Shown: positions 4,433 to 22,993 of the stretch, one piece after another
How positions within the stretch are numbered: position 1 is the first letter of the stretch
How the letters are laid out: every line of letters begins with the position of its first letter
IMG/VR virus record: IMGVR_UViG_2713896729_000008
Coordinates: 1 to 22,993 of that record
Strand: one strand, 5' to 3'
Length of the DNA: 22,993 bases
Origin: a virus
Taxonomy: Duplodnaviria > Heunggongvirae > Uroviricota > Caudoviricetes
Made by a program: the position numbers and the translations under genes
Notes under the pieces: model-generated
What the model was told of the DNA's origin: nothing
Databases searched by the model: none
What the model saw: only the letters and a program-made list of their open reading frames with translations

Positions 4433-4498
4433 TCTTTTCCTTATTTTTTATTCTGTTGAGTGAATACGGGAAGCGTCTCCCGGAGGCCGGGGGTTAGT

Positions 4499-5411: not shown

Positions 5412-5449
5412 GACGTTGATCCCTTGCTGATAATATCGTTTTGACTGCG

Positions 5450-6085
5450 TCAGCAGTTACCGGTACGACGGCATAGCTCAGCAAGACTCTGCTGTGCCAC
5501 CCACTGTTGCAGTTCCCTGTCTTTTTCAGTACGCCGGGCTGCAAGCGCTGCCTGCTGCCGTTTGTTAACACAATTGTCCTTTACCATCATCATGACTTCC
5601 GGCGTGAACTGTTTTTTGAGTTCAGCCGCTTTTTCATCAACATTTTCAACGGCGGGATACTGGTAGAGCAGCTTGTCTTCAACGGCTGTCCAGTAGTTAG
5701 CCATCCGGTCATCAACGACAGCGAAATAACAGCCCTGTCCTTCATTATTGCCCTGATAAATAATCCGGAGATGTAGCGGATATTCGTCACGGGGTTTTAT
5801 ATCAATGTATCTGACCGTCAGGGATTTTTTGTCTGCCAGATAAAGCGAGCCTCCATCTCTGCTGCGAAGAAAAAAGTGATTCGTCCAGGGATAATTGTCG
5901 AGTACAACCGCCTGATAGAGTGCGTTATGCATATGGTTATCATCGTATCCATCAGCGGATTTCCAGCCATCTGCCTGCATGGACTTCCAGGTTCTGACTG
6001 AACCCACGATATTTTCAGCGAGGACCGGGGGCGCTGAGATAATGCTGAGACTGGCGACCAGCGCCGCTGTGATGAGTAATTTCAT
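5450..6085 (-). CDS. exported protein of unknown function
   Basis: 211-aa ORF; signal peptide MKLLITAALVASLSIISAPPVLA; start overlaps the stop of the upstream regulator gene by 4 nt (operon-like). Confidence 0.65.
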   Translation of the reverse strand: MKLLITAALVASLSIISAPPVLAENIVGSVRTWKSMQADGWKSADGYDDNHMHNALYQAVVLDNYPWTNHFFLRSRDGGSLYLADKKSLTVRYIDIKPRDEYPLHLRIIYQGNNEGQGCYFAVVDDRMANYWTAVEDKLLYQYPAVENVDEKAAELKKQFTPEVMMMVKDNCVNKRQQAALAARRTEKDRELQQWVAQQSLAELCRRTGNC

Positions 6086-6795
6086 ACCTGTTCCTTATGG
6101 ATAATCTGCCCGTAACTGTCGTCAGCGAGCAGTGAATGAAAAAGATGAAAATGAGGTAACGCCTGTAAAAAATCCGGGCGTGACAGGATGCGGGTGAAAT
6201 GTCCGTCTGGTGTGAAGGTTTCCGGGTGAAACATCACAGAGTGAACAGTGTGCAGTGCAAAAATGGTTATCCTGCCGAGGTGTTCTCCTGCCAGAAACCA
6301 CTCACCGGAACTGAAAATCAGCCGGTAGGGAGCAAGGCTGTCGCAACGGCACCCGTCAGCCAGGAGGGTTACCCTTCGCTGTTCTGATACCGCCCTGACC
6401 AGTCGGGTGAAGATGCCCGGGCGGGAAGGCGGTATGGGTGCACCCTGATGCCAGATAAGGCATGGTGGGGTGCCCCGACCGCTTAGTAATGAGCTGACCA
6501 GATGGTGGTCCATCTCAGGAAACAGCGCGTCAGTGCCTGACTGACGGGCAAACTGCATTGCTGCCCCGGCCTGAATCTCGTGTCGTCCCCCGCTCAGCAG
6601 ACGGCAGCAGCCATTCTGATATTCGAGGTCGAGATAAATCAGACGCTCGCGGAAATCACGATGCAGGGTACGCTCCGAGACCCCAAACTCCGTCGCCAGT
6701 TTGCGCATATTCAGCGTTTCCCCCGCGAGCAGACGGCTGATAATCAGCGAAAGCCGGACAGACAGGCGGTCATAACGACGCTCAGCCTGAGACAT
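6082..6795 (-). CDS. HTH transcriptional regulator, YfjR-like (CP4-57 prophage family)
   Basis: 237-aa ORF; N-terminus MSQAERRYDRLSVRLSLIISRLLAGETLNMRKLATEFGVSERTLHRDFRER is a DeoR/YafY-type HTH and resembles E. coli YfjR as I recall it. C-terminal ligand domain not verifiable by eye. Confidence 0.7.
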   Translation of the reverse strand: MSQAERRYDRLSVRLSLIISRLLAGETLNMRKLATEFGVSERTLHRDFRERLIYLDLEYQNGCCRLLSGGRHEIQAGAAMQFARQSGTDALFPEMDHHLVSSLLSGRGTPPCLIWHQGAPIPPSRPGIFTRLVRAVSEQRRVTLLADGCRCDSLAPYRLIFSSGEWFLAGEHLGRITIFALHTVHSVMFHPETFTPDGHFTRILSRPDFLQALPHFHLFHSLLADDSYGQIIHKEQV

Positions 6796-7055
6796 GTATT
6801 ATCTCCGTGTTGGGTAAGTGATTAATTAAGAAGGTATTACTGTAAAGGATGAGACTGACAGGTTATGTCCGTGATACGTTGCGAAGCGCCTGGCGCGAAA
6901 AGGCCGTCTGGGTGCCCTGTTGGCAGCAGTAACGCGCTTATGACCGGTGGTATCTTTTGCTGGTGCAGACAGGTTATGTCTGCCACATAAAAATCATCTG
7001 CCGGATGATGAATAAACAGAGTCATTCACTACAGTCCTGATGACCTTTTACTCAT

Positions 7056-7931
7056 TCAGAAGAAGACCCAGTCCCAGACCGCGCGGGCTACAGACACCAC
7101 AGCATCACGCACGGTACGTATCACCGTCTTCAGCGGCGCAGGCAGGAATGACGATGATTCTGCCGTATCGAACACCAGCCCCACCGCCTCACCGAAGCCG
7201 TCACGGGCCTGCGACTTTACCGGCTCCGTGCAGAGCCTCCCGTGCAACTGTGTCGCCAGCGGGCTGGTGGCGCGGTCCGGAAGACAGCGCATCATGGTGC
7301 CCACCATCTCCTCAGTGCCCCATCCGGCCAGCGCGGACACCATGCAGACAGGATGATGTGGTTTAAACATCGCGGTAATGGCTACCTGCTTTTCCTGAAG
7401 ATTTGCCCATTGCTGTGCTGAAGGCGTGCTGGTTCGGGTATCCCATTCGTGGCAGGGTTCTATTTTGTCGGCCTGGTTAATCACGAACAACACCTGCTGC
7501 TGGTAAGGCTGCATCACGCCGCGCCAGAAATGCTCGTCCACCGACAGCGCCCGGTCATCGGCCTTAATGACCCACAACACCAGGTCCAGCTCCGGCAGCA
7601 TACGCCGGTACAGGGCGCGGTATTCCTGGTCCCGTTGTCCGTTTTCGCCCACGCCCGGCAAATCAACAATCACCAGACTGTGACGCCCGCTGCGTAGCCG
7701 GAAGCGCAGCACGGCACGGGTGCAGGCGTTCACATCACTGACGGCGGAGACTTTCCCCCGAAAGAGTTCGTTACAGAGCGACGACTTACCGACACCACTC
7801 TTGCCCATGATGCCAATCACCGGCTCGTAGTGGGTCAGATTCTGAATACGTTCAAGAATAAGCTGGCGAAGCGTATCGGGAAGCGACGACAGCGGTTGTT
7901 CAAGGGCCTGAAGGCCGTGTGGTTTAGTCAT
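7056..7931 (-). CDS. YfjP/YkfA/YeeP-family small GTPase (prophage-island GTP-binding protein)
   Basis: 291-aa ORF with G1 GIMGKSGVGKSS, G3 DLPGVGE and G4 NQADK motifs; size and motifs fit the cryptic-prophage GTPase family of E. coli. Confidence 0.75.
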   Translation of the reverse strand: MTKPHGLQALEQPLSSLPDTLRQLILERIQNLTHYEPVIGIMGKSGVGKSSLCNELFRGKVSAVSDVNACTRAVLRFRLRSGRHSLVIVDLPGVGENGQRDQEYRALYRRMLPELDLVLWVIKADDRALSVDEHFWRGVMQPYQQQVLFVINQADKIEPCHEWDTRTSTPSAQQWANLQEKQVAITAMFKPHHPVCMVSALAGWGTEEMVGTMMRCLPDRATSPLATQLHGRLCTEPVKSQARDGFGEAVGLVFDTAESSSFLPAPLKTVIRTVRDAVVSVARAVWDWVFF

Positions 7932-7948
7932 AAAGGATTCTCAGCGTG

Positions 7949-7989
7949 AAAAACAAAAATCCCCGCACTCCGGTCAGGGAGGCGGGGGA
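7949..7989 (-). terminator. candidate rho-independent terminator (minus strand)
   Basis: On the minus strand, a GC-rich imperfect hairpin (cccgcctcc ... ggagtgcggg) is followed by gatttttgttttt, about 60 nt downstream of the stop of the 8054-8881 gene. Confidence 0.45.
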
Positions 7990-8053
7990 TTCACGAAGAT
8001 AATATCTGTCTGAGATTATTTCGAATGAAGCTTATTGCTTCTGCCATATCACT

Positions 8054-8881
8054 TTATGATTGCCGTGATTGACTCTTCGCATCATTAAAAGCATTGTTAA
8101 TCAGTTCGTTAAGAATTTCCTTCGATGTGGTCTTCTCTACATGCGCAATAAACTCAAGTTTTTTTTGAGCCGCTTTGGTCAACTTCACAGCAGCTGGTTC
8201 CTTAGCTCTTCTGGCTCTTCTTTCCTTTTGCTCCCATGCATTTTTAAGCTCATCAAGAAGAATATCTTTATGATTTTTATTGATGCCATTTTCCGGCATG
8301 ATGCCATGTCCAAGAAACTTTCCTTTATTACGCCTTTTATTTTTGCCGTTAAGATAAGATTCCTGCTCGGTAGTCCATCCTTTCCAGTTATCAAAAATAG
8401 CAAAGATAAAATAATATTTCTCTTTATTATCATGTGGTTTTAATGGAATGCCTAAGCATCGTTCCTGCATTTGTTGCCATAACCACTGGCATTGAGTTTC
8501 ATCTTTGCTGTTAACCCATGAAAAAGGTGCTGGGTAAAGGGCGTACTGGTGACGCCATTCGATATCTATAGATGAGATTAAATTTGATATTTTTTGAGGC
8601 TTTTTTACGAAGGTTATCAACAGGTGTACGAATAAAGAAAAGCCAACGTTTCTCTCTGAGACATCCTTAATTCTTTTAAAAAGTAACCCGTTTGCATTTC
8701 TGATATTTTCAGGTGGAATTTTATCGGTCTTTTCTTTTTTATCTTGTTTACAGGTACTAAGGTTTATTTTCTCCGGGGACGAGAATGCGGAGGAAGAAGT
8801 TTTATTTTTAGCATCAATAGTACTGGATTGTTTATCAATAGTATCCACTAACTCAGCAGGAAGAGTCTGCGACCACGGCAT
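8054..8881 (-). CDS. hypothetical protein in AT-rich DNA, K/R-rich C-terminus
   Basis: 275-aa ORF in a visibly AT-rich stretch; no motif I recognise. C-terminal third is strongly basic (KNKRRNKGKF..., KERRARRAKEPAAVKLTKAAQKK). Confidence 0.5.
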   Translation of the reverse strand: MPWSQTLPAELVDTIDKQSSTIDAKNKTSSSAFSSPEKINLSTCKQDKKEKTDKIPPENIRNANGLLFKRIKDVSERNVGFSLFVHLLITFVKKPQKISNLISSIDIEWRHQYALYPAPFSWVNSKDETQCQWLWQQMQERCLGIPLKPHDNKEKYYFIFAIFDNWKGWTTEQESYLNGKNKRRNKGKFLGHGIMPENGINKNHKDILLDELKNAWEQKERRARRAKEPAAVKLTKAAQKKLEFIAHVEKTTSKEILNELINNAFNDAKSQSRQS

Positions 8882-8980
8882 AATATCGCGGGAAGGCTGA
8901 GTATATTGACTGGTGGATATAGGGTGATGCTGCCAACTTACTGATTTAGTGTATGATGGTGTTTTTGAGGTGCTCCAGTG

Positions 8981-8990
8981 NNNNNNNNNN
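8981..8990. other. assembly gap (10 N)
   Basis: Run of n. Confidence 0.95.
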
Positions 8991-9200
8991 GATGCTTATA
9001 TCGCAATAACTCCTGACACCTCAATATTACATATGGCAAGTGCCTATAATACCCCTGTTGTTGCAATTTATGCTGATTACAAAACGCGATGGCCCGCAAT
9101 GGCCGATGTCTCGGAGTCAGTCGTCGTTGGGCAAAAAATTGACAATATAAGTCTGGATGAATTCGCAAAGGCATTAAAAAGTGTTTTGGCGAGAATATGA
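8991..9200 (+). CDS. glycosyltransferase family 9 (heptosyltransferase-like) C-terminal fragment
   Basis: Frame open from the gap: DAYIAITPDTSILHMASAYNTPVVAIYADYKTRWP... resembles the conserved C-terminal nucleotide-sugar-binding segment of LPS heptosyltransferases. Confidence 0.5.
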   Translation, partial: DAYIAITPDTSILHMASAYNTPVVAIYADYKTRWPAMADVSESVVVGQKIDNISLDEFAKALKSVLARI

Positions 9201-9461
9201 GACAGTACTTATGCATAGTAATGCCGATCTGTTATGAACGGTGGTGTCATCAATACTCTGAGGCTGGTCAATCATCACAGAAAACCAGCCTTTAGATCAA
9301 AGCAGTACTCACCGAAAATGATCATAGTCACATCGAACGCGATTCTGGCGGTGCCGCATTTTTATTTATTCATTTTCTGTGAGAGAAGGGCTAGTTCTGT
9401 AGAGGGAATGTAAAAAAGAGTGCCCCGAATGGAACACTCTTTAAGAAATTATAACGGAAAA

Positions 9462-10317
9462 TCACAGGTTTTTATAACATGTCGCATAAGAAAACCCAAG
9501 CTTTTCAAATACGCTTTGATCACCTGTTGCCAGGGAAACTACGTATTGTTCGCTTGAGTTTGCGGGACTAGATGACCAATACATATTTGATTGAAAACCA
9601 GCGTCAGTCGTGTAATGCCCCATATCTCCCCATTCACTGTACAGTGACCCGATGCCTCGGGAACTACAGTGGTTTAAATAGTTTGCTCTGGGGAGCGTGT
9701 AGCCATTGCTGCTGCAAAAATTTTCAGCAAGGCTGTATATCATGAAAGCCTCGCCGGCGTTCACCCACCAACTCTTCACACGGATTTCGTATACATAGCT
9801 AGGGCCTCCTGATTTTGGCGTCGCCGTAATCCTTTCCGAATTGCTGCCGACATTTTTAAATGTCACTTTACCGGTAGCATCAACATCGACCCAGGAGGCA
9901 GAGCTTGAAAACTCATAATCAGCCGCCGTTTTTCCTGGGGCAAAGTTGTCATTATTCAACTGATAATACGCCCCGGTGAACCCCTGCGAAGGGAATGTAG
10001 TTGTCGGTAGGTCAGTACCATTGACTGATACTGTACCGCTCATTATTTTGTCTTCTGCGCGAGTGAATTGTATTGTGGTACTCAGACCAGCTTGATGAAC
10101 ACCATTCAATACAGGGATCAGCGTTGCGATACCCTCTCCGCCTCCTGTAACAGTGGCTTTGTAATCACCGTTGATATTTAGACTGTAATCAATTGCGCTA
10201 ATTTTTATATAGGGCACGTTAGTACCTGATTGCACAAATTCCATCCCTTCAGAAACTTTGATCGGATTGCCTGATATATCGTGCAGAACAAGACGTAATT
10301 CAGCACTATCGGTATAG
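9462..10317 (-). pseudogene. invasin/intimin-family adhesin, C-terminal portion, 5' end truncated by IS3
   Basis: Minus-strand frame is open from the stop at 9462 right up to the IS3 terminus at 10318 with no credible start (track starts at an internal Met, 10244). Contains a beta-rich Ig-like segment and a Cys-containing C-terminal domain (...NFCSSNGYTLPRANYLNHCSS...SYATCYKNL) reminiscent of invasin/intimin lectin-like domains. Confidence 0.5.
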
Positions 10318-10347: not shown

Positions 10348-11214
10348 CTAAGCGAGGTTCTTGTTTTCAAATTGTTCCGGACTGAGGCCGCCACACCAAC
10401 TGTGCCGCCGCCACCGATTGTAATCACATTCGATATAATTAAACACCGTTGCCCGCATTATTTCCCGGCTGATAAAGTGTTCTCCATGGATACATTCCAC
10501 TTTCAGCGAATGAAAGAAGCTTTCCACGCAGGCATTATCGTAGCAGCAACCTTTTGCGCTCATACTTCCACGCAGATTATGCCGCTTCAGTTGCGCCTGA
10601 TAATCTGCTGAACAGTACTGGCCTCCACGGTCCGTGTGAACGATAACGTTCCGGGGCCTCTTACGCCGCCACAGCGCCATCTGCAGGGCATCGCAGGCCA
10701 GTTGCGCCGTCATGCGTGGCGACATTGACCAGCCAATAACGGCACGTGACCACAGGTCAATGACCACTGCCAGATACAGCCAGCCTTCATCTGTACGTAA
10801 GTACGTGATGTCTCCTGCCCACTTCTGGTTCGGGCCACTGGCGTAAAAATCCTGCTCCAACAGATTTTCTGACACAGGCAGGCCGTGTGCGCGGTAGCTG
10901 ACCGGGCTGAACTTCCGGGAGGCCTTTGCCCTCAGTCCCTGACGGCGCAGGCTTGCCGCCACGGTTTTTACGTTAAAGGGGTAACCCTGAGCACGCAGTT
11001 CATCCGTCAGGCGTGGGGCACCGTAACGCTGTTTTGACCGGGTAAAAGCCGCGAGGACAACGCTGTCGCAGTGTTGGCGGAACTGCTGACGCGTGCTTAT
11101 CCTTGTCCGCCGCTGACACCACGTATACCAGCCGCTGCGGGCCACCCGGAGCACGCGGCACATTGCTTTTATGCTGAACTCAGCCTGATGTTTTTCAATA
11201 AAGACATACTTCAT
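10348..11214 (-). CDS. insF: IS3 OrfB (InsF), DDE transposase catalytic region
   Basis: 288-aa [32 protein letters not shown]...[12 protein letters not shown] is recognisable as IS3 InsF; overlaps orfA by 4 nt. Confidence 0.85.
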
Positions 11215-11510
11215 TTCAGGCGCTTCGCGAAGTATGTCGCGGCCTTTTGGAGGATAGCCAGCTCTTCATCCCGTTCTGCCAGCTGGCGTTTGAGACGTGC
11301 AATCTCGGTAGACATCTCCAGTTCACGTTCAGAAGACGTCTGCTGATTTTGCTGTTTACTGCGCCAGTTGTAGAGTTGTGATTCATACAGGCTGAGTTCA
11401 CGGGCTGCGGCAGTAACACCGATGCGTTCAGCAAGCTTCAGGGCTTCACTGCGAAATTCAGGCGAATGCTGTTTACGGGGTTTTTTACTGGTTGATACTG
11501 TTTTTGTCAT
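11211..11510 (-). CDS. insE: IS3 OrfA (InsE), transposase N-terminal HTH protein
   Basis: [32 protein letters not shown]...ATYFAKRLK is recognisable as IS3 InsE; the track ORF begins two in-frame codons-plus upstream at 11519. Confidence 0.85.
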
Positions 11511-11575
11511 GTGAGTCACCTCTGACTGAGAGTTTACTCACTTAGCCGCGTGTCCACTATTGCTGGGTAAGATCA

Positions 11576-11902
11576 CTGAACCAGTGGGATGCGCTGTGCT
11601 ACTACTGTGAAGATGGCCTGGCAGAGCCTGATAACAACGCTGCCGAACGAGCCCTTCGTGCCGTCTGTCTTGGGAAAAAGAATTTTATCTTCTTCGGCAG
11701 CGACCACGGTGGTGAGCGCGGAGCCCTGCTGTACGGACTGATCGGGACGTGCAGGCTGAATGGTATCGATCCGGAAGCCTACCTTCGCCATATCCTGAGC
11801 GTACTGCCGGAGTGGCCCAGCAACAAAGTGGCCGAACTGCTGCCATGGAACGTGGTTCTTACCGATAAATAACCGTCAATACGGCGCTCACTTAACGCTT
11901 AC
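11576..11902 (+). mobile_element. IS66-family element remnant: transposase (TnpC) C-terminal 98 codons plus probable terminal repeat
   Basis: Frame open from the first base after IS3: ...DNNAAERALRAVCLGKKNFIFFGSDHGGERGALLYGLIGTCRLNGIDPEAYLRHIL...ELLPWN, stop at 11870-11872. This is the conserved IS66 TnpC C-terminal signature. The sequence ...cgcttac ending near 11902 is the reverse complement of the GTAAGCG IS66-type terminus. Confidence 0.75.
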
Positions 11903-12176: not shown

Positions 12177-14027
12177 ATGGTTTATTCGATAAAACACGGC
12201 ATTGTCGAGCAGGACGGGTGTCCAATCGATCCCGAATTGCTTTTTAGACTTGGCAAATTTGTAGCTGAGGCTAGAGACAGCGAAACTACTTTGGTCATCT
12301 CAAAACGCCCAGCTGAACTGAAATTCCGGTTCAGCCATGAACCAGCGCCTTCATTCAGATTGTTTTTCAGGGAGGTAGAGCTTACTCCTGATCAGGTGAA
12401 TTCTTTGGTGGAATACGGTTATTTTATTGCTGATGGCAAGCGGGTGTATTTTGTCAGTGACAGACTTAAGGATTTCTCCGTATCTGCCTGCAACAAGCTG
12501 TCACTCCCCGGATTGCTCAAACTACTTCGCAAACTATACAATGATGGACTTATTGACGCTCTTCCATCATCCCTTGTAGAGAAGCTCAGGGCACAGCAGC
12601 AGAAAATATCACTCCACGATAAACTCTTTGTCAGGGAACTCTACCCCTACCAGAATGAAGGTGTTGCATGGCTGACCTTCTGTGCAGCCAACGGTGTGGG
12701 TACCATCCTTGCCGATGATATGGGTCTGGGTAAGACTGCTCAAGTAATTGCCCTGTGCTGCGATGTTCTCGAACACAATCCTGAAGGTAGGATCCTTATT
12801 GTTGTTCCCAATCCTCTGCTGGCCAACTGGATCAGAGAATTTTCTTTTTTTGCTCCTTCACTCAGACCTTTTCTCCATTATGGGCAGAACAGGAGCGGTC
12901 TCAGTTCAGATCTTTCCGAGCACAATATAATTGTTACTCCCTATACCGTATTGAGTTCCGATATTTCGATGCTGGAAGAAATCCCGTTTGACCTTGTACT
13001 TTATGATGAAGCCAGTATGCTGAAAAATCCTCAGTCGGGCAGATCTCTTGCAGCAAGACGTCTTGATTCTGTTGCTTCCGTTGCAATGTCGGGAACTCCT
13101 GTCGAGAACTGCCTTCTTGACGTCTGGGCTCTCTGTGACCTGGTTTTCCCCGGTTTTCTCGGAAACGAGCAGGATTTCAGATCTCGTTATGTCCATCGCG
13201 AACTGTCCAAAACGCTCAATACGGATCTACACGGGCTTGAAAACAGTCTCCGGCAGATAACCCTGCGACGTATGAAAAAAGATGTCCTGACACAGCTGCC
13301 TGAAAAAATGGATATTCACAGAGCTGTTACCGCAGGAGACAAGGAACGAAATACCTATGAATCCATCATTGAGGAGATGCAGCAGGATGCGGCAAAAGGA
13401 GGAGGAGGTATGCTACCCCTGATCAACAAACTACAGCAGTTTACTGCACATCCGGCTCTTCTAGATCCGAGCATACCCCATGATGTCAAATCCCTATGCC
13501 TCCACAGCGCCAAATTCGAACTACTGATGATGGAACTGGACGGCATAGAACAATCCGGAGAAAAAGTCATCATCTTTGCCACATTCCAGAAGGCAATCGA
13601 TCTGCTAGGTGCTGCAGTTAGGGAACGTTATGGCATCACCCCAGGAGTGATTGACGGACGGACTCCAAATGAACAACGGCAGCCGCTGATTGACAGATTT
13701 TCCAAATCGTCCGGATTCGATCTGCTGCTGTTGCACCCTAAAACAGCCGGTATGGGGCTAAATATCACCGCTGCCACCAATGTAATCCATTATTGCCGAC
13801 AGTGGAATCCGGCCCTTGAGGCACAGGCTACGGCAAGAGCATGGAGAAACGGACAGAAATCTGTGGTTAGCGTTTACTACATGTATTACGCGGATACTGT
13901 CGAAGAAATGATCGATGAACGGATACGAATGAAACAGAAGCTTAGCGAGCAGGTTGTTGCAGTGGCCGACTATAAAGAAACAGACAAACAGCTGATGCTG
14001 GAATATTTGGAATCGATAAAAAAATGA
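12177..14027 (+). CDS. SNF2-family helicase-like ATPase
   Basis: 616 aa; RBS aggaaa upstream of ATG. Motif I LADDMGLGKT, motif II LVLYDEASMLKN, motif III MSGTPVEN, motif V GMGLNITAATNV, motif VI QATARAWRNGQ. N-terminal ~150 aa without recognisable motif. Confidence 0.9.
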   Translation: MVYSIKHGIVEQDGCPIDPELLFRLGKFVAEARDSETTLVISKRPAELKFRFSHEPAPSFRLFFREVELTPDQVNSLVEYGYFIADGKRVYFVSDRLKDFSVSACNKLSLPGLLKLLRKLYNDGLIDALPSSLVEKLRAQQQKISLHDKLFVRELYPYQNEGVAWLTFCAANGVGTILADDMGLGKTAQVIALCCDVLEHNPEGRILIVVPNPLLANWIREFSFFAPSLRPFLHYGQNRSGLSSDLSEHNIIVTPYTVLSSDISMLEEIPFDLVLYDEASMLKNPQSGRSLAARRLDSVASVAMSGTPVENCLLDVWALCDLVFPGFLGNEQDFRSRYVHRELSKTLNTDLHGLENSLRQITLRRMKKDVLTQLPEKMDIHRAVTAGDKERNTYESIIEEMQQDAAKGGGGMLPLINKLQQFTAHPALLDPSIPHDVKSLCLHSAKFELLMMELDGIEQSGEKVIIFATFQKAIDLLGAAVRERYGITPGVIDGRTPNEQRQPLIDRFSKSSGFDLLLLHPKTAGMGLNITAATNVIHYCRQWNPALEAQATARAWRNGQKSVVSVYYMYYADTVEEMIDERIRMKQKLSEQVVAVADYKETDKQLMLEYLESIKK

Positions 14028-15622
14028 CAGATAAAATTGAATTACAGGAAAATGATTTCCGCCCTTCTGCTGCGAGGCTGGTCGAAAGCCTCCGTGATAC
14101 GGGATACAGTGAAAAAGCGGCATTTGCTGACATTGTAGACAATTCAATAGCAGCTAATGCTACGAAAATTGCCATCGAGCTCCAATATCTAATGGGTGAG
14201 TTCCGAGTAGTCATTACCGATAACGGTGATGGAATGACTGAGTCCGAGCTGAAGAATGCGATGCGGTACGGTTCCGAAAAACGGCCGAATCCGAAGTCAC
14301 TGGGCAAATTCGGAATGGGGCTGAAAACTGCGTCTACGGCATTCTGCCGTAGACTGGTGGTACTTTCACAGAAAGAAGGAACTGCAGTAGGCCGTATCTG
14401 GGATCTCGATACCATCAGTGAAAAAGATCGCTGGGAACTCGAGACCCCAGATGAAAACGACTATTACGACGATTTCGAAGTTCTTGAGGATTTCTCCGGA
14501 AATTCAGGCACCATGATTGTCTGGGAAAAAATTGATCGTCTGATCAAGCCAGGCAGCGATAGACAGATGCTTGATCAGATCCGGACCCTCGGTAAGGAAC
14601 TTGTTGACGAACTGAGTGCCGTCTTTTTCAAATATCTTTCCTCCGGAAACGTAGAAATTTCACTCAAAATTGCGGATGAACCCGAAATCCTTCTCCAAGG
14701 ATGGGATCCCCTGTCTACTGAACTTGTTACCAGTGGCGGGGCCCGTCCCCAGCTCTTGAAAGAAAAGAAAATCCGCGTCGAGTTCAACGGAAACAGCTAT
14801 TCTTTCACAATCAGAGGAAGCCTGATTCCATCGCAGAATGAGCTGACTGCGGAAGAGCAGGAGGCTGTGAGATACGGATTGGATAACCAAGGGTTCTATA
14901 TCTATCGAGAAGACCGGTTGATATGGAATGACGGCTGGCCTCACCGAATGTATAAAAAGGAAGGTAAGATCACCCGTCTGCGTGTCGAGCTGGTTTTCTC
15001 CCATGAACTTGATGATGTATTCAGTATCGATTTCCGCAAAAGCCGAGTGATAATCCCTGTTGAAATCCGTAGGGAACTGCAGTCGCTGATTGCTCCATGG
15101 CGTCAGGCACTACTTTCCGTTCCGTCAAAAAAACAATCTGAACAGTCCGGTTCGACACGTGCACATGGTCCTGCTGATAATGCGATAGATAAGCAGAAAA
15201 ACCGTACAAAAAACTCCGATATAAAGGTTGATGGCGAAACAGTTACTATCAGAAACCAGAACCAGCCCAAACCTGCAGTAATCAACGATATACGCGTCTA
15301 TGAGGACAAGACTGTCAGGGTTCACGAAGAAAACTCCCTGATGGGTGACAATCTCTGGGAACCGTCATGTGACATTGATGGAAACACCTGCGTAACACTT
15401 GGGAAGTCGCATCCATATTTCCTGAGAATGTATGATGTCTGCAAGGACAATGTAGAAGCCATGAAAGCTCTCGACATGCTTCTGTGGAGCCTTGCAAATG
15501 CCGAACATGGTGAATACTCAGAAGCGAACAAGCACACCCTGAAAGGATTCCGCCAGAAGGTCAGTGAGAGTCTTCGTTATCTCAGCCTTGAACTGCCGGA
15601 TCCGGAAGAGGATTCAGAATGA
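14024..15622 (+). CDS. GHKL (Bergerat-fold) ATPase, MutL/MORC-like
   Basis: 532 aa; ATG overlaps the SNF2 stop (ATGA). N-box DIVDNSIAANATKIAIEL (compare MutL ELVENSLDAGAT), G1 box VITDNGDGM, G2 box GKFGMGLK. C-terminal ~300 aa unassigned. Confidence 0.85.
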   Translation: MTDKIELQENDFRPSAARLVESLRDTGYSEKAAFADIVDNSIAANATKIAIELQYLMGEFRVVITDNGDGMTESELKNAMRYGSEKRPNPKSLGKFGMGLKTASTAFCRRLVVLSQKEGTAVGRIWDLDTISEKDRWELETPDENDYYDDFEVLEDFSGNSGTMIVWEKIDRLIKPGSDRQMLDQIRTLGKELVDELSAVFFKYLSSGNVEISLKIADEPEILLQGWDPLSTELVTSGGARPQLLKEKKIRVEFNGNSYSFTIRGSLIPSQNELTAEEQEAVRYGLDNQGFYIYREDRLIWNDGWPHRMYKKEGKITRLRVELVFSHELDDVFSIDFRKSRVIIPVEIRRELQSLIAPWRQALLSVPSKKQSEQSGSTRAHGPADNAIDKQKNRTKNSDIKVDGETVTIRNQNQPKPAVINDIRVYEDKTVRVHEENSLMGDNLWEPSCDIDGNTCVTLGKSHPYFLRMYDVCKDNVEAMKALDMLLWSLANAEHGEYSEANKHTLKGFRQKVSESLRYLSLELPDPEEDSE

Positions 15623-16542
15623 ATTATGAATACGATCTGGCCGATTTCAAACGTTACCTTTACGACAAAAACCACAGTTACAGGGTAGATGGACTGATTT
15701 TCTGGCAGAACAGGATTCCGTTGCCGATTGACCTGTTCAATCGAATATTCGATGAATCAGATCTGATAATTGCAGATTTTGTTTATCAGGTAGCAGCAAG
15801 CGCTGCCGTTTTCAGCGAAAAAGAGTCATTCGAGAGTACCTTCGGGCTGGAAGTGACAAATCTTCCAACCGACAAGCTTAAAGCGGAAATACCAGCACTG
15901 TCCACGTGGGTGGATGAACATCTGCCTGAAAATTGCAGAATTGTCCGTATGATATATGAAATCGCGGAGCTTCTGGGCCTTTCAGAGTTCAGGTTTTCCG
16001 GTGATAGGATCGCAAAATCGCTTGCTCACCAAGGGAAAAAGTATGCCCGTCTATTCATGCCGAGTCCGGTAAAGGATCTGGTGAACAACATTCAGGGATG
16101 TGACACCATCGGGCAGGACAATACTGACATGTTCGGTAATATCATTGCCGACCGTTATAATATTTACCGTTCAGGTTTCAGTGATGCCTTGGCTATCATA
16201 TTCAATGCCCTACTCGAATTTAGGCTCCTGTTTTCTGGAAAAAGCGGCAATCTGCCTAGATTTAGGGTAATGATGACTGCTCCTGACGACATCGATATTC
16301 GTTTCGGTAAAACAGCCGACGGTTCATTGTGGGAACCTGGTTACGGGGACGATCATTTCATTACCATCAATACTGAACATCCCGTGATGAAAAATCAGGC
16401 GAAAGACCAGGGCTGTGCACTGGCCGAATTGCTGTTTTTTATGGGGCAGTATGAAAACTCTCAGTTTTCGGACCAGAACAAGAAATTTATTGAAAACATG
16501 CGACAGACAATATCCAGAAATCTCTGGATCAAGTATGACTAA
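15619..16542 (+). CDS. hypothetical protein, operon partner of unknown function
   Basis: 307 aa; ATG overlaps the GHKL stop (ATGA); same strand and frame-coupled inside the operon; no motif I recognise. Confidence 0.7.
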   Translation: MNYEYDLADFKRYLYDKNHSYRVDGLIFWQNRIPLPIDLFNRIFDESDLIIADFVYQVAASAAVFSEKESFESTFGLEVTNLPTDKLKAEIPALSTWVDEHLPENCRIVRMIYEIAELLGLSEFRFSGDRIAKSLAHQGKKYARLFMPSPVKDLVNNIQGCDTIGQDNTDMFGNIIADRYNIYRSGFSDALAIIFNALLEFRLLFSGKSGNLPRFRVMMTAPDDIDIRFGKTADGSLWEPGYGDDHFITINTEHPVMKNQAKDQGCALAELLFFMGQYENSQFSDQNKKFIENMRQTISRNLWIKYD

Positions 16543-16569
16543 TTTTTCTCATGCAAGGACGGGACAAGT

Positions 16570-18510
16570 ATGCTTTCAGAACTGGATATGGTGATGAACT
16601 GGTTCAAAAATGAACCTGAATCGGCATGGCAATTCGATGAGATCGGATTCGATGATGAAACAAGAACGGTTCTATCAACAACCGGACTGACATTGCTGGA
16701 CCATACAGCACGGATGAAAACTGGAAGCGGGTATCACTGTTATATACCATGCCAGTATCTGATGTATATGCTAAAGATTGGGCCATTTGTAAGACTACTG
16801 GACAACTACATCTCTGTATTCGAAGAAATCAAAAAAAATATGTTTCCGGCAGAATTCGAAGCAATGATCGAAAGCGGAACGTCAAACGAGCAGGCGCTCG
16901 TTTCGCTGGACATCTACAGCCGCAGTAACTTTTTCTGGGCTTTCAAAGATCCCAGAACAAGACTTGAGGCAAAAAATCTAATAAACACGAGCTCAAAAAC
17001 TGGGAAAAAGAGTTATAGGCAATCCGATGATTTTGTCAAATCGGTCTTGCTGGCATCATTGCCGGTCCCGAATGTAAGCTCGGAAACACTCGGTACCCTG
17101 ATTCTTGATCTGGTGCGTTCTCAAGAAACATATGATTACCTTCAAAGGAGATATATGCCCAGTCTTCCTTATATGTTCAGTGTTCCTGATGGGGATGAAC
17201 TGCTGTTCAGAATAATGACAACCATTGGCTGGTCCGGTCAGTTTGAGCCTTTACTGGGGACTGACCCCGATGCCGAATTTGTTTCATGGAATGATATAGA
17301 CAGGGCATTTCTTCTCCGCCCATCCAGGGAACCCGGCAATGCGCTGTATGTCCAGAATCCCGTCCATTTTTCTGTTCCGCTGGAGAAATATATTTTCATC
17401 AGAAAGGGTCTCTTGGATACTCCCGATTCACTTGAAAAAATATCGGTTCTGGTTTCCGGTTTATGGCTGGGGATGAGTATCCGGAACAGAGAGGGCAAGT
17501 TCTTTTTCGAGTCATCGACCAGAGCCTCCGTATCCGGACCTAGAGTGACCGGTGGAACGAACAGAATCTTCTATGGGGCACCCGGTACGGGAAAAAGCTA
17601 CAGGGTCCATGGTGAAATGAGTGACGGTGCAGAAAAGATTGTCACAGTTTTCCATCCTGATACTCAGCATAACGATTTTGTCGGTGCCCTGAAGCCTAAA
17701 ATGGAAAAGAATGAACAGGGAGAAAGCAGCATAACCTACAGTTTCAGACCAGGCCCCTTTACCTGCGCACTCATACTGGCCATTGCTCGTCCAGACAGAA
17801 AGGTCTGTCTCATTATCGAAGAAATCAACCGTGCTTCTGCTGCAGCTGTCTTCGGCGAGCTTTTCCAGCTTCTAGACAGGGAGCCTGATGGAACGAGTAC
17901 CTACAGCATCAATGCCACTGATCCGGATATGATCGAGTATATAAATACGGAACTAGGTACTATGGGATGTACTCCTGTCGATAGCTTACGGATCCCGTCC
18001 AATATGTCTCTACTGGCTACCATGAACAGCAGTGATCAGGCAGTTATGCCGCTGGATACTGCATTCAAACGGCGCTGGAATTTCGAATATCTACCAATCG
18101 ATTTATCAAAACCGGAGATCCCACAAACCGAAATCGTTTTCACCACCAATTCAGGAAAATATTCGGTACTCTGGCGCGATTTTGCTCAAATTATTAATGA
18201 CACCCTTGTCGAATGTGAAATAGCAGAGGATCGTCTGATCGGCCCGTTTTTCCTAGATTCTAAAGAACTGGAAAATAGGGAAGCAGCGAAAGCTGCCCTT
18301 GGCGGAAAACTGTTCATCTATTTGTGGGATGATGTGCTGAGACATGTCGGACACCAGAAAATATTTGCGTCTACCTTCAGAACGTTCGGCAACCTATCTG
18401 CAGCATTTCGCAATGACATGGCTGTTTTCTCCACTGCCGTAGAGAACAGACTTGAAGGGGTGGGCACTCCTGTTGACATGAACAGGGATCCGCAAGATGT
18501 TGCCAGCTGA
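16570..18510 (+). CDS. McrB-like AAA+ GTPase with unrelated N-terminal domain
   Basis: 646 aa. C-terminal half has Walker A RIFYGAPGTGKSY, Walker B CLIIEEINRASAAAVFGELFQLLDRE (McrB DEINRA-type signature) and MSLLATMNSSDQ...DTAFKRRW. N-terminal ~330 aa has no resemblance I can see to the E. coli McrB DNA-binding domain. Confidence 0.85.
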   Translation: MLSELDMVMNWFKNEPESAWQFDEIGFDDETRTVLSTTGLTLLDHTARMKTGSGYHCYIPCQYLMYMLKIGPFVRLLDNYISVFEEIKKNMFPAEFEAMIESGTSNEQALVSLDIYSRSNFFWAFKDPRTRLEAKNLINTSSKTGKKSYRQSDDFVKSVLLASLPVPNVSSETLGTLILDLVRSQETYDYLQRRYMPSLPYMFSVPDGDELLFRIMTTIGWSGQFEPLLGTDPDAEFVSWNDIDRAFLLRPSREPGNALYVQNPVHFSVPLEKYIFIRKGLLDTPDSLEKISVLVSGLWLGMSIRNREGKFFFESSTRASVSGPRVTGGTNRIFYGAPGTGKSYRVHGEMSDGAEKIVTVFHPDTQHNDFVGALKPKMEKNEQGESSITYSFRPGPFTCALILAIARPDRKVCLIIEEINRASAAAVFGELFQLLDREPDGTSTYSINATDPDMIEYINTELGTMGCTPVDSLRIPSNMSLLATMNSSDQAVMPLDTAFKRRWNFEYLPIDLSKPEIPQTEIVFTTNSGKYSVLWRDFAQIINDTLVECEIAEDRLIGPFFLDSKELENREAAKAALGGKLFIYLWDDVLRHVGHQKIFASTFRTFGNLSAAFRNDMAVFSTAVENRLEGVGTPVDMNRDPQDVAS

Positions 18511-19771
18511 TATTCTGTATCTTTCAGACAGGACACCTGTCACCGATCGCAGTATTCCTGCGACCGTGCTCGATGAGCTGAGAAACAGGGGGCTGCTGGC
18601 CCCCGACATGCAGAAAATCCATTTCTGTGGAGTCATGTCTTTCAGTGGAGGTCTGGCTGTATTTCTGCCACGAAATAACAGTTCTTCTCGTGAATCGCAG
18701 GCTCTTTCAGCACATTATCTGCTCCGCTCACTCCTGAAATTCTACCGAGATAGAGACACCGGTGTTTTTGATGGGGATGCAGGAACCGGACTTATCGGTG
18801 GTGAATCCCTGTCGTTGGCAACTGCACTGATTGACGACTATCAGACGAATGGTCTCTATGTCCGCCGGATTAGAGTCGATACAACCAACTCCGGAAAAGT
18901 TGTATGGCCGGAGACAATTGCCCGAGGGACTGCCTATACTAGCCCATCTGGGCCTGTATATATCGATCCTGTAACCACACGTTCGCGCTACCTCACCGAT
19001 AGCGAGACAGCAAAGATTCATGCCTCTGTAATGAGGGAGCTCTATCCGGTATACGGAATGCTCTGGACAGGCAGTCAGGGCACTCCTGAACGACTGCAGA
19101 ATGTTCCGCGTCCTGAGGGAAATGTTTTCTCATGGGTTGTACACCTAAGAAGAGAACTGCAGTTCAGCTATTCCGAAAGGGATATTTTCCTTTTGCGGAG
19201 ACTGATCATGTATCTTGAAACAGGGAGAGGAATGCGGAATGGCGGGGTTCTTATCGGTGTCAGGAAGTTTCACAGTCTGTGGGAAGCCATGCTGGATGAA
19301 TGCTTGGTGGGTAAATACCGAGTTAACAATAAATTGCCTATTCCCGTGTATCGGGCCGGCAGTGACAGGTTTGTTCCCGTTGCCAACAAGAGCCAGAGAA
19401 CGGATACGGTTCTCCACAATGCAGAAAAAACGCACGTCGCGATCATAGATGCCAAATACTATGATGCGAAGACACCGGATAGTGCTCCTGGTTGGCCGGA
19501 TCTGGTAAAACAGTTTTTCTACCAGAAGGCGCTTTCTTACCTAGTGCCGGTCGGTACCCACATCACAAACCATTTCATTTTTCCTGGAACAGAAAAGCCA
19601 CTCAGGGCTGTCCATGTTGCGGAAAGGGGAAAGGTTCTGGTTACAGAAGCTGACTGTCTGTCCGAATATCCGCCGATTCATTGCCATTACCAGGATCCCC
19701 TAGAACTACTTCGGCTGTATTCAACAGGAGAAAAGCTGGTAGAACTGACCCGCGAAATTTTTACAGTCTGA
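18497..19771 (+). CDS. McrC-like PD-(D/E)xK nuclease subunit
   Basis: 424 aa; start overlaps the McrB-like stop by 14 nt (mcrBC-type arrangement); contains ...TDTVLHNAEKTHVAIIDAKYYD, fitting the (I/V)DxKY nuclease motif of McrC and LlaJI.R2. Confidence 0.7.
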   Translation: MLPADILYLSDRTPVTDRSIPATVLDELRNRGLLAPDMQKIHFCGVMSFSGGLAVFLPRNNSSSRESQALSAHYLLRSLLKFYRDRDTGVFDGDAGTGLIGGESLSLATALIDDYQTNGLYVRRIRVDTTNSGKVVWPETIARGTAYTSPSGPVYIDPVTTRSRYLTDSETAKIHASVMRELYPVYGMLWTGSQGTPERLQNVPRPEGNVFSWVVHLRRELQFSYSERDIFLLRRLIMYLETGRGMRNGGVLIGVRKFHSLWEAMLDECLVGKYRVNNKLPIPVYRAGSDRFVPVANKSQRTDTVLHNAEKTHVAIIDAKYYDAKTPDSAPGWPDLVKQFFYQKALSYLVPVGTHITNHFIFPGTEKPLRAVHVAERGKVLVTEADCLSEYPPIHCHYQDPLELLRLYSTGEKLVELTREIFTV

Positions 19772-19883
19772 AAAGATTCGGACTATGCCCAGAAATGTCG
19801 ATAGACATGAGACCCCCTCATTGATTGATCATCCGTACAGTGATACTATCGCCGGGAATAAAACCGGATAAGGTGAGCATGGG

Positions 19884-21200
19884 ATGGACAGTAAGAATAA
19901 ATTCCAATATATCAAAAATATGAGAAAAAAATTAGGCATAGGTCGCACCGAATTTGCCAATCTTCTCGGACTCGGTGCCACCGGAGAACGTACAGTCCGA
20001 GGATGGGAAGAAGAGGAACATGAACCGTCTTCCGCCAAATGGCAGGCCATTCTCGATGTGGAAAAGAAGATGACTGAATATCTGGAAAACGCACCTTTCC
20101 GCCAGAAGCCTGAAAATGAATGCAATTTCACCTTCATCGATCTGTTTGCTGGTATCGGAGGTATTCGTCTTCCTTATCAGCAGCAGGGAGGGCACTGTGT
20201 ATTCTCATCCGAATGGGACAAGTTCTCCCAGAAGACCTATCTAACGAATTTCGGCGAAATGCCCCAAGGTGACATCACTAGAATTCCGGCATCCGACATT
20301 CCTGATCACGATGTACTGCTTGGCGGATTTCCATGCCAGGCTTTTTCACAGGCCGGTTTGAAAAAAGGTTTCAGCGATACCCGTGGAACCATGTTCTTCG
20401 AAATTCAGCGGATAATGACAGCCAAGCGTCCAAAGGCATTCATGTTGGAAAATGTCAAGCAACTGCAGGGACATGATAAGGGTCGTACCCTGAAAACCAT
20501 TCTCGATATCCTGCGGGGCAATGGAACCCATTCCGTTCCGGACGATATCCCGATTAGTGAGGATGCCCGCAATGCTCTGTCCGAAAAACTCAATTACTGG
20601 GTTGATTACCGTGTACTGCGTGCAGGTGACTTCGGTGCCCCCCAGAACCGTGAACGTATTTTCATCGTTGGTTTTGACCGTGACTATTATAGGGGCGTGG
20701 ATTTCGACAGTGTATTCAGATGGCCGGTACCTCCTATGACTCCGACCCGTGTTGGTGACATTCTGGAAGACCTCGATCGTCTGCCTCTATCACAAGACAG
20801 ATATACCATCTCGGATAGACTGTGGATAGGCCACCAGAAACGGAAACTGGAACACGAAAAGAAAGGTAACGGTTTCGGCTATTCTCTTTTCAACAAGGAC
20901 AGCGAATACACTAATACCATCAGTGCACGTTATTACAAGGACGGCTCCGAAATCCTGATTGACCAGTCACATTTGGGTAGGAACCCACGCAAGCTAACTC
21001 CGCGCGAATGTGCACGTCTACAGGGATTCCCTGACGACTACATCGTCGATGCTGTTTCACAGGGCCAGATCTACAAGCAATTTGGCAACTCTGTCTGCAT
21101 GAATGTCATCCGTGCTGTCTCGGAACAGTTGGTCGAAACTATGAAAAAAGCCGAAATACTGGCTGGTAAGAACCAGGGTCTGGAGCGAACAGCAGGCTAA
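19884..21200 (+). CDS. DNA (cytosine-5) methyltransferase with N-terminal XRE-type HTH domain
   Basis: 438 aa; RBS aaggtgag. N-terminal HTH-like KKLGIGRTEFANLLGLGATGERTVRGWE. C5-MTase motifs I FIDLFAGIGGIRL, IV GGFPCQAFSQAG, VI FMLENVKQL, VIII QNRERIFIVG, IX RKLTPRECARLQGFPDDY, X KQFGNSV. Confidence 0.9.
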   Translation: MDSKNKFQYIKNMRKKLGIGRTEFANLLGLGATGERTVRGWEEEEHEPSSAKWQAILDVEKKMTEYLENAPFRQKPENECNFTFIDLFAGIGGIRLPYQQQGGHCVFSSEWDKFSQKTYLTNFGEMPQGDITRIPASDIPDHDVLLGGFPCQAFSQAGLKKGFSDTRGTMFFEIQRIMTAKRPKAFMLENVKQLQGHDKGRTLKTILDILRGNGTHSVPDDIPISEDARNALSEKLNYWVDYRVLRAGDFGAPQNRERIFIVGFDRDYYRGVDFDSVFRWPVPPMTPTRVGDILEDLDRLPLSQDRYTISDRLWIGHQKRKLEHEKKGNGFGYSLFNKDSEYTNTISARYYKDGSEILIDQSHLGRNPRKLTPRECARLQGFPDDYIVDAVSQGQIYKQFGNSVCMNVIRAVSEQLVETMKKAEILAGKNQGLERTAG

Positions 21201-21730: not shown

Positions 21731-22993
21731 CTACATATTACCCCGGTTGATCTTCGCATAGTCAAACGGCGTAATTCCCCTTTCCCGATTGGCATCCAGA
21801 AAATCAGCCCACCACTGCAACATCAGCTTGCGCTCATCCAGATGTTCCGCTTTATGAATATACGCCGCCCTCACCGAATTGCGTTCCATATGGCTCATCT
21901 GCCGTTCTACCGCATCTCTGGACCAAAGACCTGACTCAATCAACGAACTACAGGCCATTGCCCGGAAGCCGTGACCACAGACATCGACCTTTGTATCATA
22001 GCCCATCAGACGCAGTGCGTTATTTACAGTGTTCTCACTCATGGGTTTCCATGGATTGTGATCGCCGGTGAAAATCAGTTCATGTTCTCCGCTGATAGTG
22101 TGGATCTGCTTCAGTATATTCACCGCCTGAGTAGATAGTGGCACAAGATGCTCTGTTCGCATTTTTGAGCCACGATGGGAATACTTGACCCCTTCAATAG
22201 GTTTCCGCTCAGGAGGAATGGTCCACATGGCTTTCTTGAAGTCGATCTCAGACCACCTGGCAAAGCGTAGTTCGCTGGAACGGATGAAGATAAGCAGGGT
22301 GAGTTTAGTTGCCTGCCGGGTGAGAGGTTGTCCTCTGTAGGCATCCAGTCGTTCAAGAAGCTCTGAAATGCGATTTAAGGCGAGGGCAGGGCGGTGCTGG
22401 CGTTTCACTGTGGTTAACGCGCCAGCCATATCCAAGGCAGGGTTATAGGTGATAATGCCTGACTGGGCAGCATAGCGCATGATTGCAGTGATACGCTGCT
22501 GAAGGCGCGCTGCGATTTCATATATCTCCTTTGCTTCGGCTGCTTTAACGGGAACAAGTAAATCGGGAGTCCTGAGGGTGGTAATGTCACGTGAACCAAT
22601 AAAGGGGAAAACATGAGTTTCGAGGCTTTTCAGTATCCTCTCATTGTGTGAGGCTGACCATTTTTTGTTGCTCTTATGCCACTGTCTTGCGATGCCTTCA
22701 AATGTCTGAGCTGTTTCGGGTACCGACTTTTTGATCCTTTTCTGTTCGCATGGGTCAGTTCCCTCAGCTATCAGCTTTCTCGCCGTATCGCGTTTTTCCC
22801 TTGCTTCTGATAACGAGACTTCAGGATAGACCCCCAGAGCGAGCGTTTTCTCTTTGCCCAGAAACCGATAGCGGAGCCGCCAGTAGCGAGAGCCGTTAGG
22901 GTGAACGAGCAAGAACATGTTGCCGCTGTCGGCAAGTTTATAAGGTTTTTCATCCGGTTTAGCGGCACGGATTTTAGCGTCAGTGAGCGCCAT
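21731..22993 (-). CDS. int: P4-type tyrosine integrase (site-specific recombinase)
   Basis: 420 aa; N-terminal arm-binding region MALTDAKIRAAKPDEKPYKLADSGNMFLLVHPNGSRYWRLRYRF typical of the P4 Int / IntA family; catalytic region with HGFRAM (HxxR) and RAAYIH (Tyr). The start codon is the final three bases of the window. Confidence 0.9.
   Translation of the reverse strand: MALTDAKIRAAKPDEKPYKLADSGNMFLLVHPNGSRYWRLRYRFLGKEKTLALGVYPEVSLSEAREKRDTARKLIAEGTDPCEQKRIKKSVPETAQTFEGIARQWHKSNKKWSASHNERILKSLETHVFPFIGSRDITTLRTPDLLVPVKAAEAKEIYEIAARLQQRITAIMRYAAQSGIITYNPALDMAGALTTVKRQHRPALALNRISELLERLDAYRGQPLTRQATKLTLLIFIRSSELRFARWSEIDFKKAMWTIPPERKPIEGVKYSHRGSKMRTEHLVPLSTQAVNILKQIHTISGEHELIFTGDHNPWKPMSENTVNNALRLMGYDTKVDVCGHGFRAMACSSLIESGLWSRDAVERQMSHMERNSVRAAYIHKAEHLDERKLMLQWWADFLDANRERGITPFDYAKINRGNM

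Follow-up and report, generated by a model that had tools for sequence, protein, structure and literature searches.

Bacterial operons that combine a MORC ATPase with a SWI2/SNF2 ATPase were predicted computationally by Iyer, Abhiman, and Aravind (2008, Biol Direct 3:8, PMC2292703), and the available portions of that text describe them as operon type 2. The members named there include HNH or EcoRII-like nucleases, DCM, and Vsr, and the accessible parts of two sources read these operons as restriction-modification (R-M) systems that loop DNA (PMC2292703; PMC3417536). Also in 2008, bacterial MORC ATPases were proposed to be ancestors of the eukaryotic MORC chromatin compactors. On the nuclease side, Bell et al. 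(2024) pointed to McrB clades associated with methyltransferases as a topic for later study (PMC11090510). Here, we analyzed a stretch of DNA of 22,993 nucleotides (nt) from IMG/VR record IMGVR_UViG_2713896729_000008 (the window), in which three adjoining genes encode a SNF2-family translocase, a MORC-family GHKL ATPase, and a 307-residue protein that we call ORF307. These genes probably form the conserved ATP-driven core of a six-gene cassette (12177–21200) carried on an integrative island of Escherichia coli, and the cassette as a whole is likely to be a cytosine-methylation-based defense system of the R-M type.

The initial annotation had described the three genes as a triad joined by ATGA overlaps. 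The exact open reading frames (ORFs) and both start/stop overlaps, at 14024–14027 between SNF2 and MORC and at 15619–15622 between MORC and ORF307, were confirmed in the ORF list and by reading the sequence (Table 1). A 4-nt ATGA overlap alone is common in bacterial operons and unremarkable. At the MORC-ORF307 junction, however, all 14 orthologous loci checked have an ATGA or TAATG overlap, and ORF307 is translationally coupled to the MORC gene. As all three proteins are 61–89% identical across genera, we take them to be the products of real, co-expressed genes. The operon also runs on past position 16542, where a gene for a McrB-like protein is followed by genes for a LlaJI-type R2 nuclease and a Dcm-type methyltransferase. 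In a promoter and terminator scan, promoter predictions were not above those in shuffled sequence, and no operator-like inverted repeats were found upstream of the SNF2 gene or dcm.

Both ATPase classes had been assigned correctly by the initial annotation. The SNF2 protein matches Pfam SNF2-rel_dom (170.8 bits against a cut-off of 24.9; E = 4.5e-50) and Helicase_C (7.5e-19, above cut-off). Its matches to SNF2 enzymes in the PDB range from 1e-42 to 1e-65, the best solved relatives being the SsoRad54-like 1z63 (8.7e-65), ZorD 8qy7, ISWI, CHD1, and DDM1. Motifs I, II, and VI are intact in the translation, as Walker A GLGK186T, DEAS at D277/E278, and QATARAWRNGQ. The GHKL protein matches HATPase_c_3 (105 bits against a cut-off of 25); its only sequence matches in the PDB are human MORC2, MORC3, and MORC4, and its structural model is nearest MORC3, SMCHD1, and MORC2. 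All four nucleotide-binding motifs of GHKL ATPases are present, with N40, DNGDGM, GKFGMGLK, and SGTM invariant in 19–34 homologs. Motif I reads ADIVDN, where Asp36 (14129–14131) replaces Glu in all 34 homologs and in both branches of the family described below; MORC2, compared here, has the catalytic Glu at this position, and motif I of MutL likewise carries a catalytic Glu. The GHKL domain is followed by an S5-fold domain with a conserved basic residue, the lysine of DFRKSR being invariant. Within the S5 region, the segment GFYIYREDRLI (G290–I300) matches the MORC signature GhXhhpXXRhl, as defined in the available text of PMC2292703, and is conserved in both branches. By these motifs, we assign the GHKL protein to the MORC family proper (sensu Iyer et al. 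2008).

We then examined how the cassette is conserved. Sixteen genome loci were fetched with an ORF307 profile and compared by tblastn with the six window proteins. All six genes were present in 15 of these loci, in many genera and in the same order, with Dcm either downstream, as in the window, or upstream and divergent. The six-gene set was also found in L023/24, in L025/26, and on plasmid pFORC54 of Vibrio vulnificus (L029, NZ_CP019123.1). In this last case, the GHKL, ORF307, and McrB-like genes are annotated as shortened or split coding sequences, which could reflect decay or sequencing frameshifts. The triad proteins and Dcm were 61–89% identical to those of the window, and the McrB-like and R2 proteins 41–81%. 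The McrBC-like neighborhood reported by the initial annotation is therefore a constant feature of these 15 loci, in each of which the triad is kept with the McrB-like/R2 pair.

The sixteenth locus, from an alphaproteobacterial metagenome-assembled genome with an ORF307 only 32% identical to ours, encodes Dcm, Vsr, SNF2, GHKL, an HNH protein of 262 amino acids (aa), and an ORF307-like protein, and McrBC-like genes are absent. Divergent ORF307 homologs (L017–L022) and more distant GHKL homologs, including Pedobacter and Kaistella (Bacteroidota) loci, lie in the same HNH-type arrangement, in which Vsr may be missing; in all, this variant occurs in L016–L022, L027/28, L030, and L031, spanning Alphaproteobacteria, Gammaproteobacteria, and Bacteroidota. 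Local profile searches identified the last gene of HNH-type loci as an ORF307 homolog (E ~1e-100) and the gene before it as the HNH protein. No homology was detected between the N-termini of the HNH and McrB-like proteins, which might have indicated a swapped reader domain. Dcm was present in every related locus whose contig extends far enough; the exception, L020, lies on a contig without DNA upstream of SNF2. Both cassette types carry a single Dcm. Because the distant branch has an HNH protein and no McrBC-like pair, the nuclease is exchangeable, and the constant set consists of Dcm, SNF2, GHKL, and ORF307. With Dcm as a constant partner, the logic of the cassette is probably that of restriction-modification. 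Dcm itself is missing from the initial annotation. The proposal made there, that the triad feeds an McrBC-like effector, agrees with the co-conservation of the pair in 15 of 16 genome loci, but does not extend to the distant branch; there, the triad does occur without McrBC-like neighbors, though no clearly different role for it emerged.

An unlikely alternative is that the cassette comprises two independent neighbors, a self-sufficient LlaJI-type R-M system (Dcm, McrB-like R1, and R2) and a separate SNF2/MORC/ORF307 system. The latter would act alone (it might, for instance, use ATP to compact or silence foreign DNA, or cause abortive infection), so that the two would share an island but not a mechanism. 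LlaJI-type systems such as LlaJI and BsuMI are not known to need SNF2 or MORC. In the metagenome contigs L025/26, a complete NsnABC defense system (L025 11565–14803) separates the triad from the McrB-like/R2 pair, whose orientation is inverted and divergent from Dcm; in the window, 27 nt separate ORF307 from the McrB-like gene, with no overlap; and the identity ranges above indicate that the triad evolves more slowly than the pair. Two separate systems would, however, have to account for co-occurrence in a fixed order in nearly all genome loci and many genera, for all parts staying together even after the NsnABC insertion, and for there being a single Dcm in each cassette. Furthermore, since the triad of the other branch always has its own HNH protein and Dcm, the triad of the McrBC type would need the McrB-like/R2 pair as its nuclease and would otherwise have none. 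A second 307-aa ORF in L025 was considered as an ORF307 paralog and rejected, as it is NsnC.

The remaining genes of the cassette supply the nuclease and the methyltransferase. The McrB-like protein carries Walker A GTGK342S, Walker B EE417–418, and the NxxD signature N486-SSD; it matches Pfam AAA_5 (2.8e-10), and its only PDB matches are the E. coli and Thermococcus McrB proteins. We did not find a family for its 320-residue N-terminal domain, nor any sequence match of that domain to a solved structure. This domain is the most variable part, at 29–47% identity across loci, compared to 51–72% for the AAA+ part. The R2 nuclease matches Pfam RE_LlaJI (PF09563, 6.2e-32, 111.6 bits against a cut-off of 23.6), with D303, D318, and K320 as the candidate active site. 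By Pfam assignment, the pair belongs to the LlaJI family, and its linkage to a methyltransferase makes unmethylated DNA the presumed target. Dcm matches Pfam DNA_methylase (1e-94) and TIGR00675 dcm (305 bits against a cut-off of 100.65). Its N-terminal helix-turn-helix (HTH; residues 1–60, 19884–20060) has a weak MqsA-type match here and an HTH_3 match in the L023 ortholog, which suggests autoregulation like that of a C protein. Each of the six window proteins has an identical counterpart among NCBI entries of E. coli, Enterobacter, Citrobacter, and relatives, under names that are no more than generic; these are, in gene order, DEAD/DEAH box helicase, ATP-binding protein, hypothetical protein, AAA family ATPase, LlaJI family restriction endonuclease, and DNA (cytosine-5-)-methyltransferase.

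ORF307 is the component for which the libraries offered least. Profile searches gave no match in Pfam, PADLOC, NCBIfam, or the PDB, and a per-member Pfam scan of its family at E ≤ 5 returned scattered single matches only. There are 224 homologs, all unnamed, from Vibrio, Yersinia, Aeromonas, Shewanella, Pectobacterium, Xenorhabdus, and metagenomes, and among the matches listed almost all have a length of 307–309 aa. Among 1.84 billion representatives, 58 clusters make up this small family, whose full-length members are nearly all 310–330 aa. The homolog P0139 (L020 4338–5753) is longer, at 471 aa, with a C-terminal extension that has a weak MORN-repeat match, and is followed in L020 by a gene for a 1,953-aa DUF4011/AAA_11/AAA_12 helicase. 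The AlphaFold2 model of ORF307 (predicted local distance difference test score 79.8) consists largely of helices, plus a small sheet close to the C-terminus, and yielded no convincing structural match in the PDB.

The last ~75 residues of ORF307 are homologous to the C-terminal domain of the adjoining MORC protein in both branches of the family. This relationship was detected by BLASTP (E = 1e-6) and by hhalign of the family alignments (98.3%, E = 1e-14; 97.8% with broad alignments). The C-terminal region alone aligns by hhalign, with no similarity between the two proteins beyond it. When profiles of the shared domain were run against every ORF of 23 sources, the matches were reciprocal and fell only on ORF307 homologs and GHKL C-termini, and the domain was present in the Bacteroidota loci as well. 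As negative controls, the ORF307 and MORC tails were compared against SNF2, the McrB-like protein, R2, Dcm, and HNH, with no homology (all <1% probability). Placing the translations side by side gave the pattern DGSLWEPGY..DH.I.N.EHP...LL.F....EN.QFSD.NKK.IEN.RQ.ISR.L for the ORF307 C-terminus, to which the MORC C-terminus aligns as NLWEPSCD..GNTCVTLGKSHP...LLWSLANAEHGEYSE.NKHTLKGFRQKVSESL. Identical in the two families are W, E-P, H-P, E, S, R-Q, and S, which in ORF307 fall within LWEP and HP and at E279, S284, R295-Q, and S299. In both AlphaFold2 models, the shared domain is built of strands, a short helix, and two long helices, and both models match 2ejq. A zincin-like metalloprotease fold (TTHA0227/DUF1025-type) was rejected for this domain, as it has no HExxH. 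The remote homology search that the initial annotation had suggested for 15619–16542 thus succeeded for the C-terminus, by paralogy to the MORC tail; the description of ORF307 as a protein without recognizable motifs holds for the libraries but not for this domain.

Because the ORF307 tail shares a domain with the MORC tail, we predict a contact between the two proteins, and the sequences favor ORF307 as a MORC-binding partner over an established sensor. The initial annotation had instead suggested a specificity or sensor subunit. In such a role, ORF307 would read a target (an unmethylated site or a phage cue) and instruct the ATPases and the McrBC-like effector. ORF307 is always present and rich in invariant charged and aromatic residues, and it is one candidate reader in the HNH-type variant, where some other component must read the DNA since there is no McrB-like N-terminal domain. 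Against this, no DNA-binding fold or motif was detected in ORF307, its only recognizable part is the paralog of the MORC tail, and it is among the more conserved components of the cassettes, whereas the McrB-like N-terminal domain is the variable element. The HNH protein, too, has a ~170-residue N-terminal domain, with no family assigned, that could do the reading. We therefore consider it very unlikely that ORF307 is the specificity subunit.

As a partner of MORC, ORF307 would fit into a mechanism that we modeled on LlaJI and McrBC, MORC clamps, and SNF2 translocases, with much less confidence in the individual steps than in the system-level reading. Dcm would mark host sites and protect host DNA, with its HTH probably autoregulating expression. 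The variable N-terminal domain of the McrB-like protein would bind unmethylated incoming sites and assemble with the R2 nuclease, as in LlaJI and McrBC. By analogy, MORC would be a dimeric DNA clamp gated by ATP, and SNF2 would be a double-stranded DNA translocase that, with MORC, loops, reels, or holds DNA; their action would couple cleavage to recognition at a distance and keep cleavage off methylated host DNA. ORF307 may bind MORC via the shared C-terminal domain, either forming a heterodimer or competing with MORC homodimerization, and its conserved N-terminal domain may be the adaptor or regulator that joins the MORC/SNF2 motor to whichever nuclease is present. A more specific version, possible but tentative, is that MORC and ORF307 form an asymmetric ATP-gated clamp, loaded or driven by SNF2, which discriminates unmethylated from Dcm-methylated DNA and licenses the plugged-in nuclease, HNH or McrBC-like. 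If this were true, ORF307 would have a new fold and stand for a new class of MORC partner, and the cassette would amount to a living version, in bacteria, of the eukaryotic foreign-DNA silencing axis of DNA methyltransferase (DNMT), DDM1/LSH-type SNF2, and MORC.

Several points weigh against an R-M system built in this way. We infer the defense phenotype, the methylation motif, and every protein contact; and in the searchable literature, we found no experimental study of a MORC and SNF2 restriction operon, only work on GHKL-Shedu/paraMORC3 and computational surveys. As the nuclease pair of L025/26 is inverted and split from the triad, separate transcription of the two modules is possible, and they might function independently of each other. 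The shared domain, instead of mediating contact between MORC and ORF307, could bind DNA or a third partner common to both. No DNA-binding or catalytic fold was recognized in ORF307, and its invariant polar cluster (H137, K141, R144, D170, D178, R184, and D189) could equally be an active site. Finally, the Asp in place of Glu in motif I of MORC may make ATP turnover slow or switch-like.

The presence of Vsr in several related cassettes, including the McrBC-type L023/24, raises another alternative, in which the triad supports the methylase through repair or maintenance. A MutL-like MORC and a helicase would aid very-short-patch repair of the T:G mismatches that arise from 5-methylcytosine deamination or, in a second form, would give Dcm the access it needs to methylate DNA, a role that DDM1 and MORC have in eukaryotes. 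MutL stimulates Vsr in E. coli, and the SNF2 core scores well against DDM1 and LSH. The available portions of the 2008 survey also allow that some MORC operons were recruited for repair (PMC2292703). A repair module does not, however, explain why a nuclease (HNH or McrB-like/R2) is always present while Vsr is absent from the window and most McrBC-type loci. The cassettes also sit on mobile defense-type islands, beside BrxR, NsnABC, or prophage, with the sporadic, laterally transferred distribution typical of R-M systems. We regard a role in repair or maintenance as highly improbable.

Table 1. Features of the window, with the cassette genes and their domains first
Feature	Position	Strand	Length	Remarks
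SNF2-family double-stranded DNA translocase	12177–14027	+	616 aa	N-terminal domain, aa 1–150, no family assigned; helicase core, aa ~154–600
Prokaryotic MORC-family GHKL ATPase	14024–15622	+	532 aa	GHKL + S5, aa ~1–365, then beta-rich region and C-terminal domain
MORC C-terminal domain in common with ORF307	15335–15580	+		aa 438–519; predicted two strands, short helix, two long helices
ORF307, conserved protein	15619–16542	+	307 aa	N-terminal region, aa 1–225, mainly helical
ORF307 C-terminal domain, paralog of MORC C-terminal domain	16309–16530	+		aa 231–304
McrB-like AAA+ NTPase, LlaJI R1 equivalent	16570–18510	+	646 aa	N-terminal domain, aa 1–320, variable
LlaJI-R2-type (McrC-like) PD-(D/E)xK nuclease	18497–19771	+	424 aa	14-nt overlap with McrB-like gene
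Dcm-type C5 cytosine DNA methyltransferase	19884–21200	+	438 aa	N-terminal HTH, aa ~9–56; catalytic PC151Q; ENV189–191
Tyrosine integrase of island (context)	21731–22993	-		Arm-DNA-bind_3, Phage_int_M, Phage_integrase; NCBIfam integrase domain
IS3-family transposase pair	10348–11519	-		HTH_Tnp_1 + rve; directly upstream of cassette
IS66 transposase C-terminal fragment	11570–11872	+		Directly upstream of cassette
GTPase (MMR_HSR1/dynamin-like)	7056–7931	-		Weak PADLOC match to LeoBC, 9.8e-9
WYL regulator	6082–6795			Beside GTPase
RtT RNA (Rfam RF00391), tandem pair	3102–3233, 3281–3412	+		137.5 and 83.7 bits; gathering score 45
275-aa ORF	8054–8881	-	275 aa	No Pfam or PADLOC match
Invasin/intimin-like fragment	9462–10244

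The surroundings of the cassette bear out the bacterial island proposed by the initial annotation, here a mobile island of the defense type with an integrase, insertion sequence (IS) elements, and a WYL regulator. The IS elements suggest that the cargo was delivered or rearranged by IS activity. A primase is also encoded upstream of the cassette, and the GTPase and WYL regulator may be a second small defense or regulatory module. At 98.7% identity, the region from 3402 to 8000 (GTPase, WYL regulator, YfjS/YafY lipoprotein, and DUF4339) matches islands present in many E. coli chromosomes. On the same backbone, E. coli RM9513 (L032) carries a different cargo, consisting of a SNF2-related protein, AAA ATPase, S8 peptidase, DNA methyltransferase, and DEAD/DEAH helicase, and this position therefore looks like a variable site for defense cargo. 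In L027, a BrxR-type regulator lies upstream of the cassette, and P2-like tail genes beside it. Megablast of the cassette itself against 5,426 complete E. coli genomes and against PLSDB plasmids gave no match, nor did a protein search of its products against phages. No tRNA gene was found in the window by ARAGORN. The RtT RNA matches inside the island overlap small ORFs, and GC content drops to 37–39% at 8000–9500, compared to ~50% elsewhere.

The window holds an intact copy of the cassette in Enterobacteriaceae, with six uninterrupted ORFs and all motifs in place; together with the identity of its proteins to E. coli, Enterobacter, and Citrobacter entries, this makes direct testing in E. coli possible. 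Three features give the cassette wider interest. ORF307 is a universal fourth component missed by the libraries searched, the domain it shares with the MORC tail predicts a specific contact, and the natural swap between HNH and McrBC-like nucleases sets the effector apart from the motor core. This defense cassette is not recognized as a system by PADLOC 2.0 models.

Several known defense systems resemble single parts of the cassette. MzaB resembles the GHKL and S5 part of MORC (PADLOC 2e-42), but membership in Mza (MzaABCDE) was rejected, with 170 bits for NCBIfam MzaB against a cut-off of 850 and no other Mza model matching the six proteins. ZorD, DpdE, and DrmD resemble the SNF2 core only, with the PADLOC ZorD and DpdE matches covering the helicase half; with NCBIfam scores of 252 bits (cut-off 1500), 41 bits (cut-off 500), and 68 bits (cut-off 950), respectively, and no partner genes in the window, Zorya, Dpd, and DISARM were rejected. 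GHKL-Shedu has a fused DUF4263 nuclease (PMC12137116), and this domain of GHKL-Shedu/paraMORC3 is absent from the cassette MORC. Compared to eukaryotic MORC2, MORC3, and SMCHD1, the cassette MORC is without CW, coiled-coil, or hinge domains, has a C-terminal domain of ~80 residues in common with ORF307, carries Asp rather than Glu in motif I, and is encoded within an R-M operon.

On the nuclease side, E. coli McrBC is alike in the fold and motifs of its AAA+ NTPase and in its partner PD-(D/E)xK nuclease. It differs in that it cuts methylated DNA and has no cognate methylase, whereas the cassette has a linked Dcm, and the N-terminal reader domains are unrelated. An assignment to McrB proper (McrBC Type IV) was rejected, as NCBIfam McrB PRK11331 scored 30.9 bits against a cut-off of 637, over the AAA+ part only. 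LlaJI and BsuMI are closer, sharing the RE_LlaJI R2, an AAA_5 McrB-like R1 with NxxD and its own N-terminal domain, and a linked methyltransferase. LlaJI has two methyltransferases and is not known to include SNF2, MORC, or ORF307; unlike LlaJI, the cassette has one 5-methylcytosine methylase and three extra conserved genes.

The predicted operon type 2 of Iyer et al., as far as its available description goes, shares with the cassette a MORC GHKL and S5 protein beside SWI2/SNF2, a cytosine methylase, often Vsr, a nuclease, and a setting in mobile islands; by analogy, the cassette would work like these MORC-SNF2 R-M operons. The HNH branch (Dcm-Vsr-SNF2-GHKL-HNH) fits the published description as available (PMC2292703). 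The accessible parts of the same text name a VP1/RAV protein, and not a McrB-like/LlaJI-R2 pair or a conserved fourth protein of ~310 aa (PMC2292703). Relative to these described systems, three features of this cassette appear not to have been described before: the nuclease swap of the McrBC type, a universal fourth component in the form of the ORF307 family, and the paralogy between ORF307 and the MORC tail.

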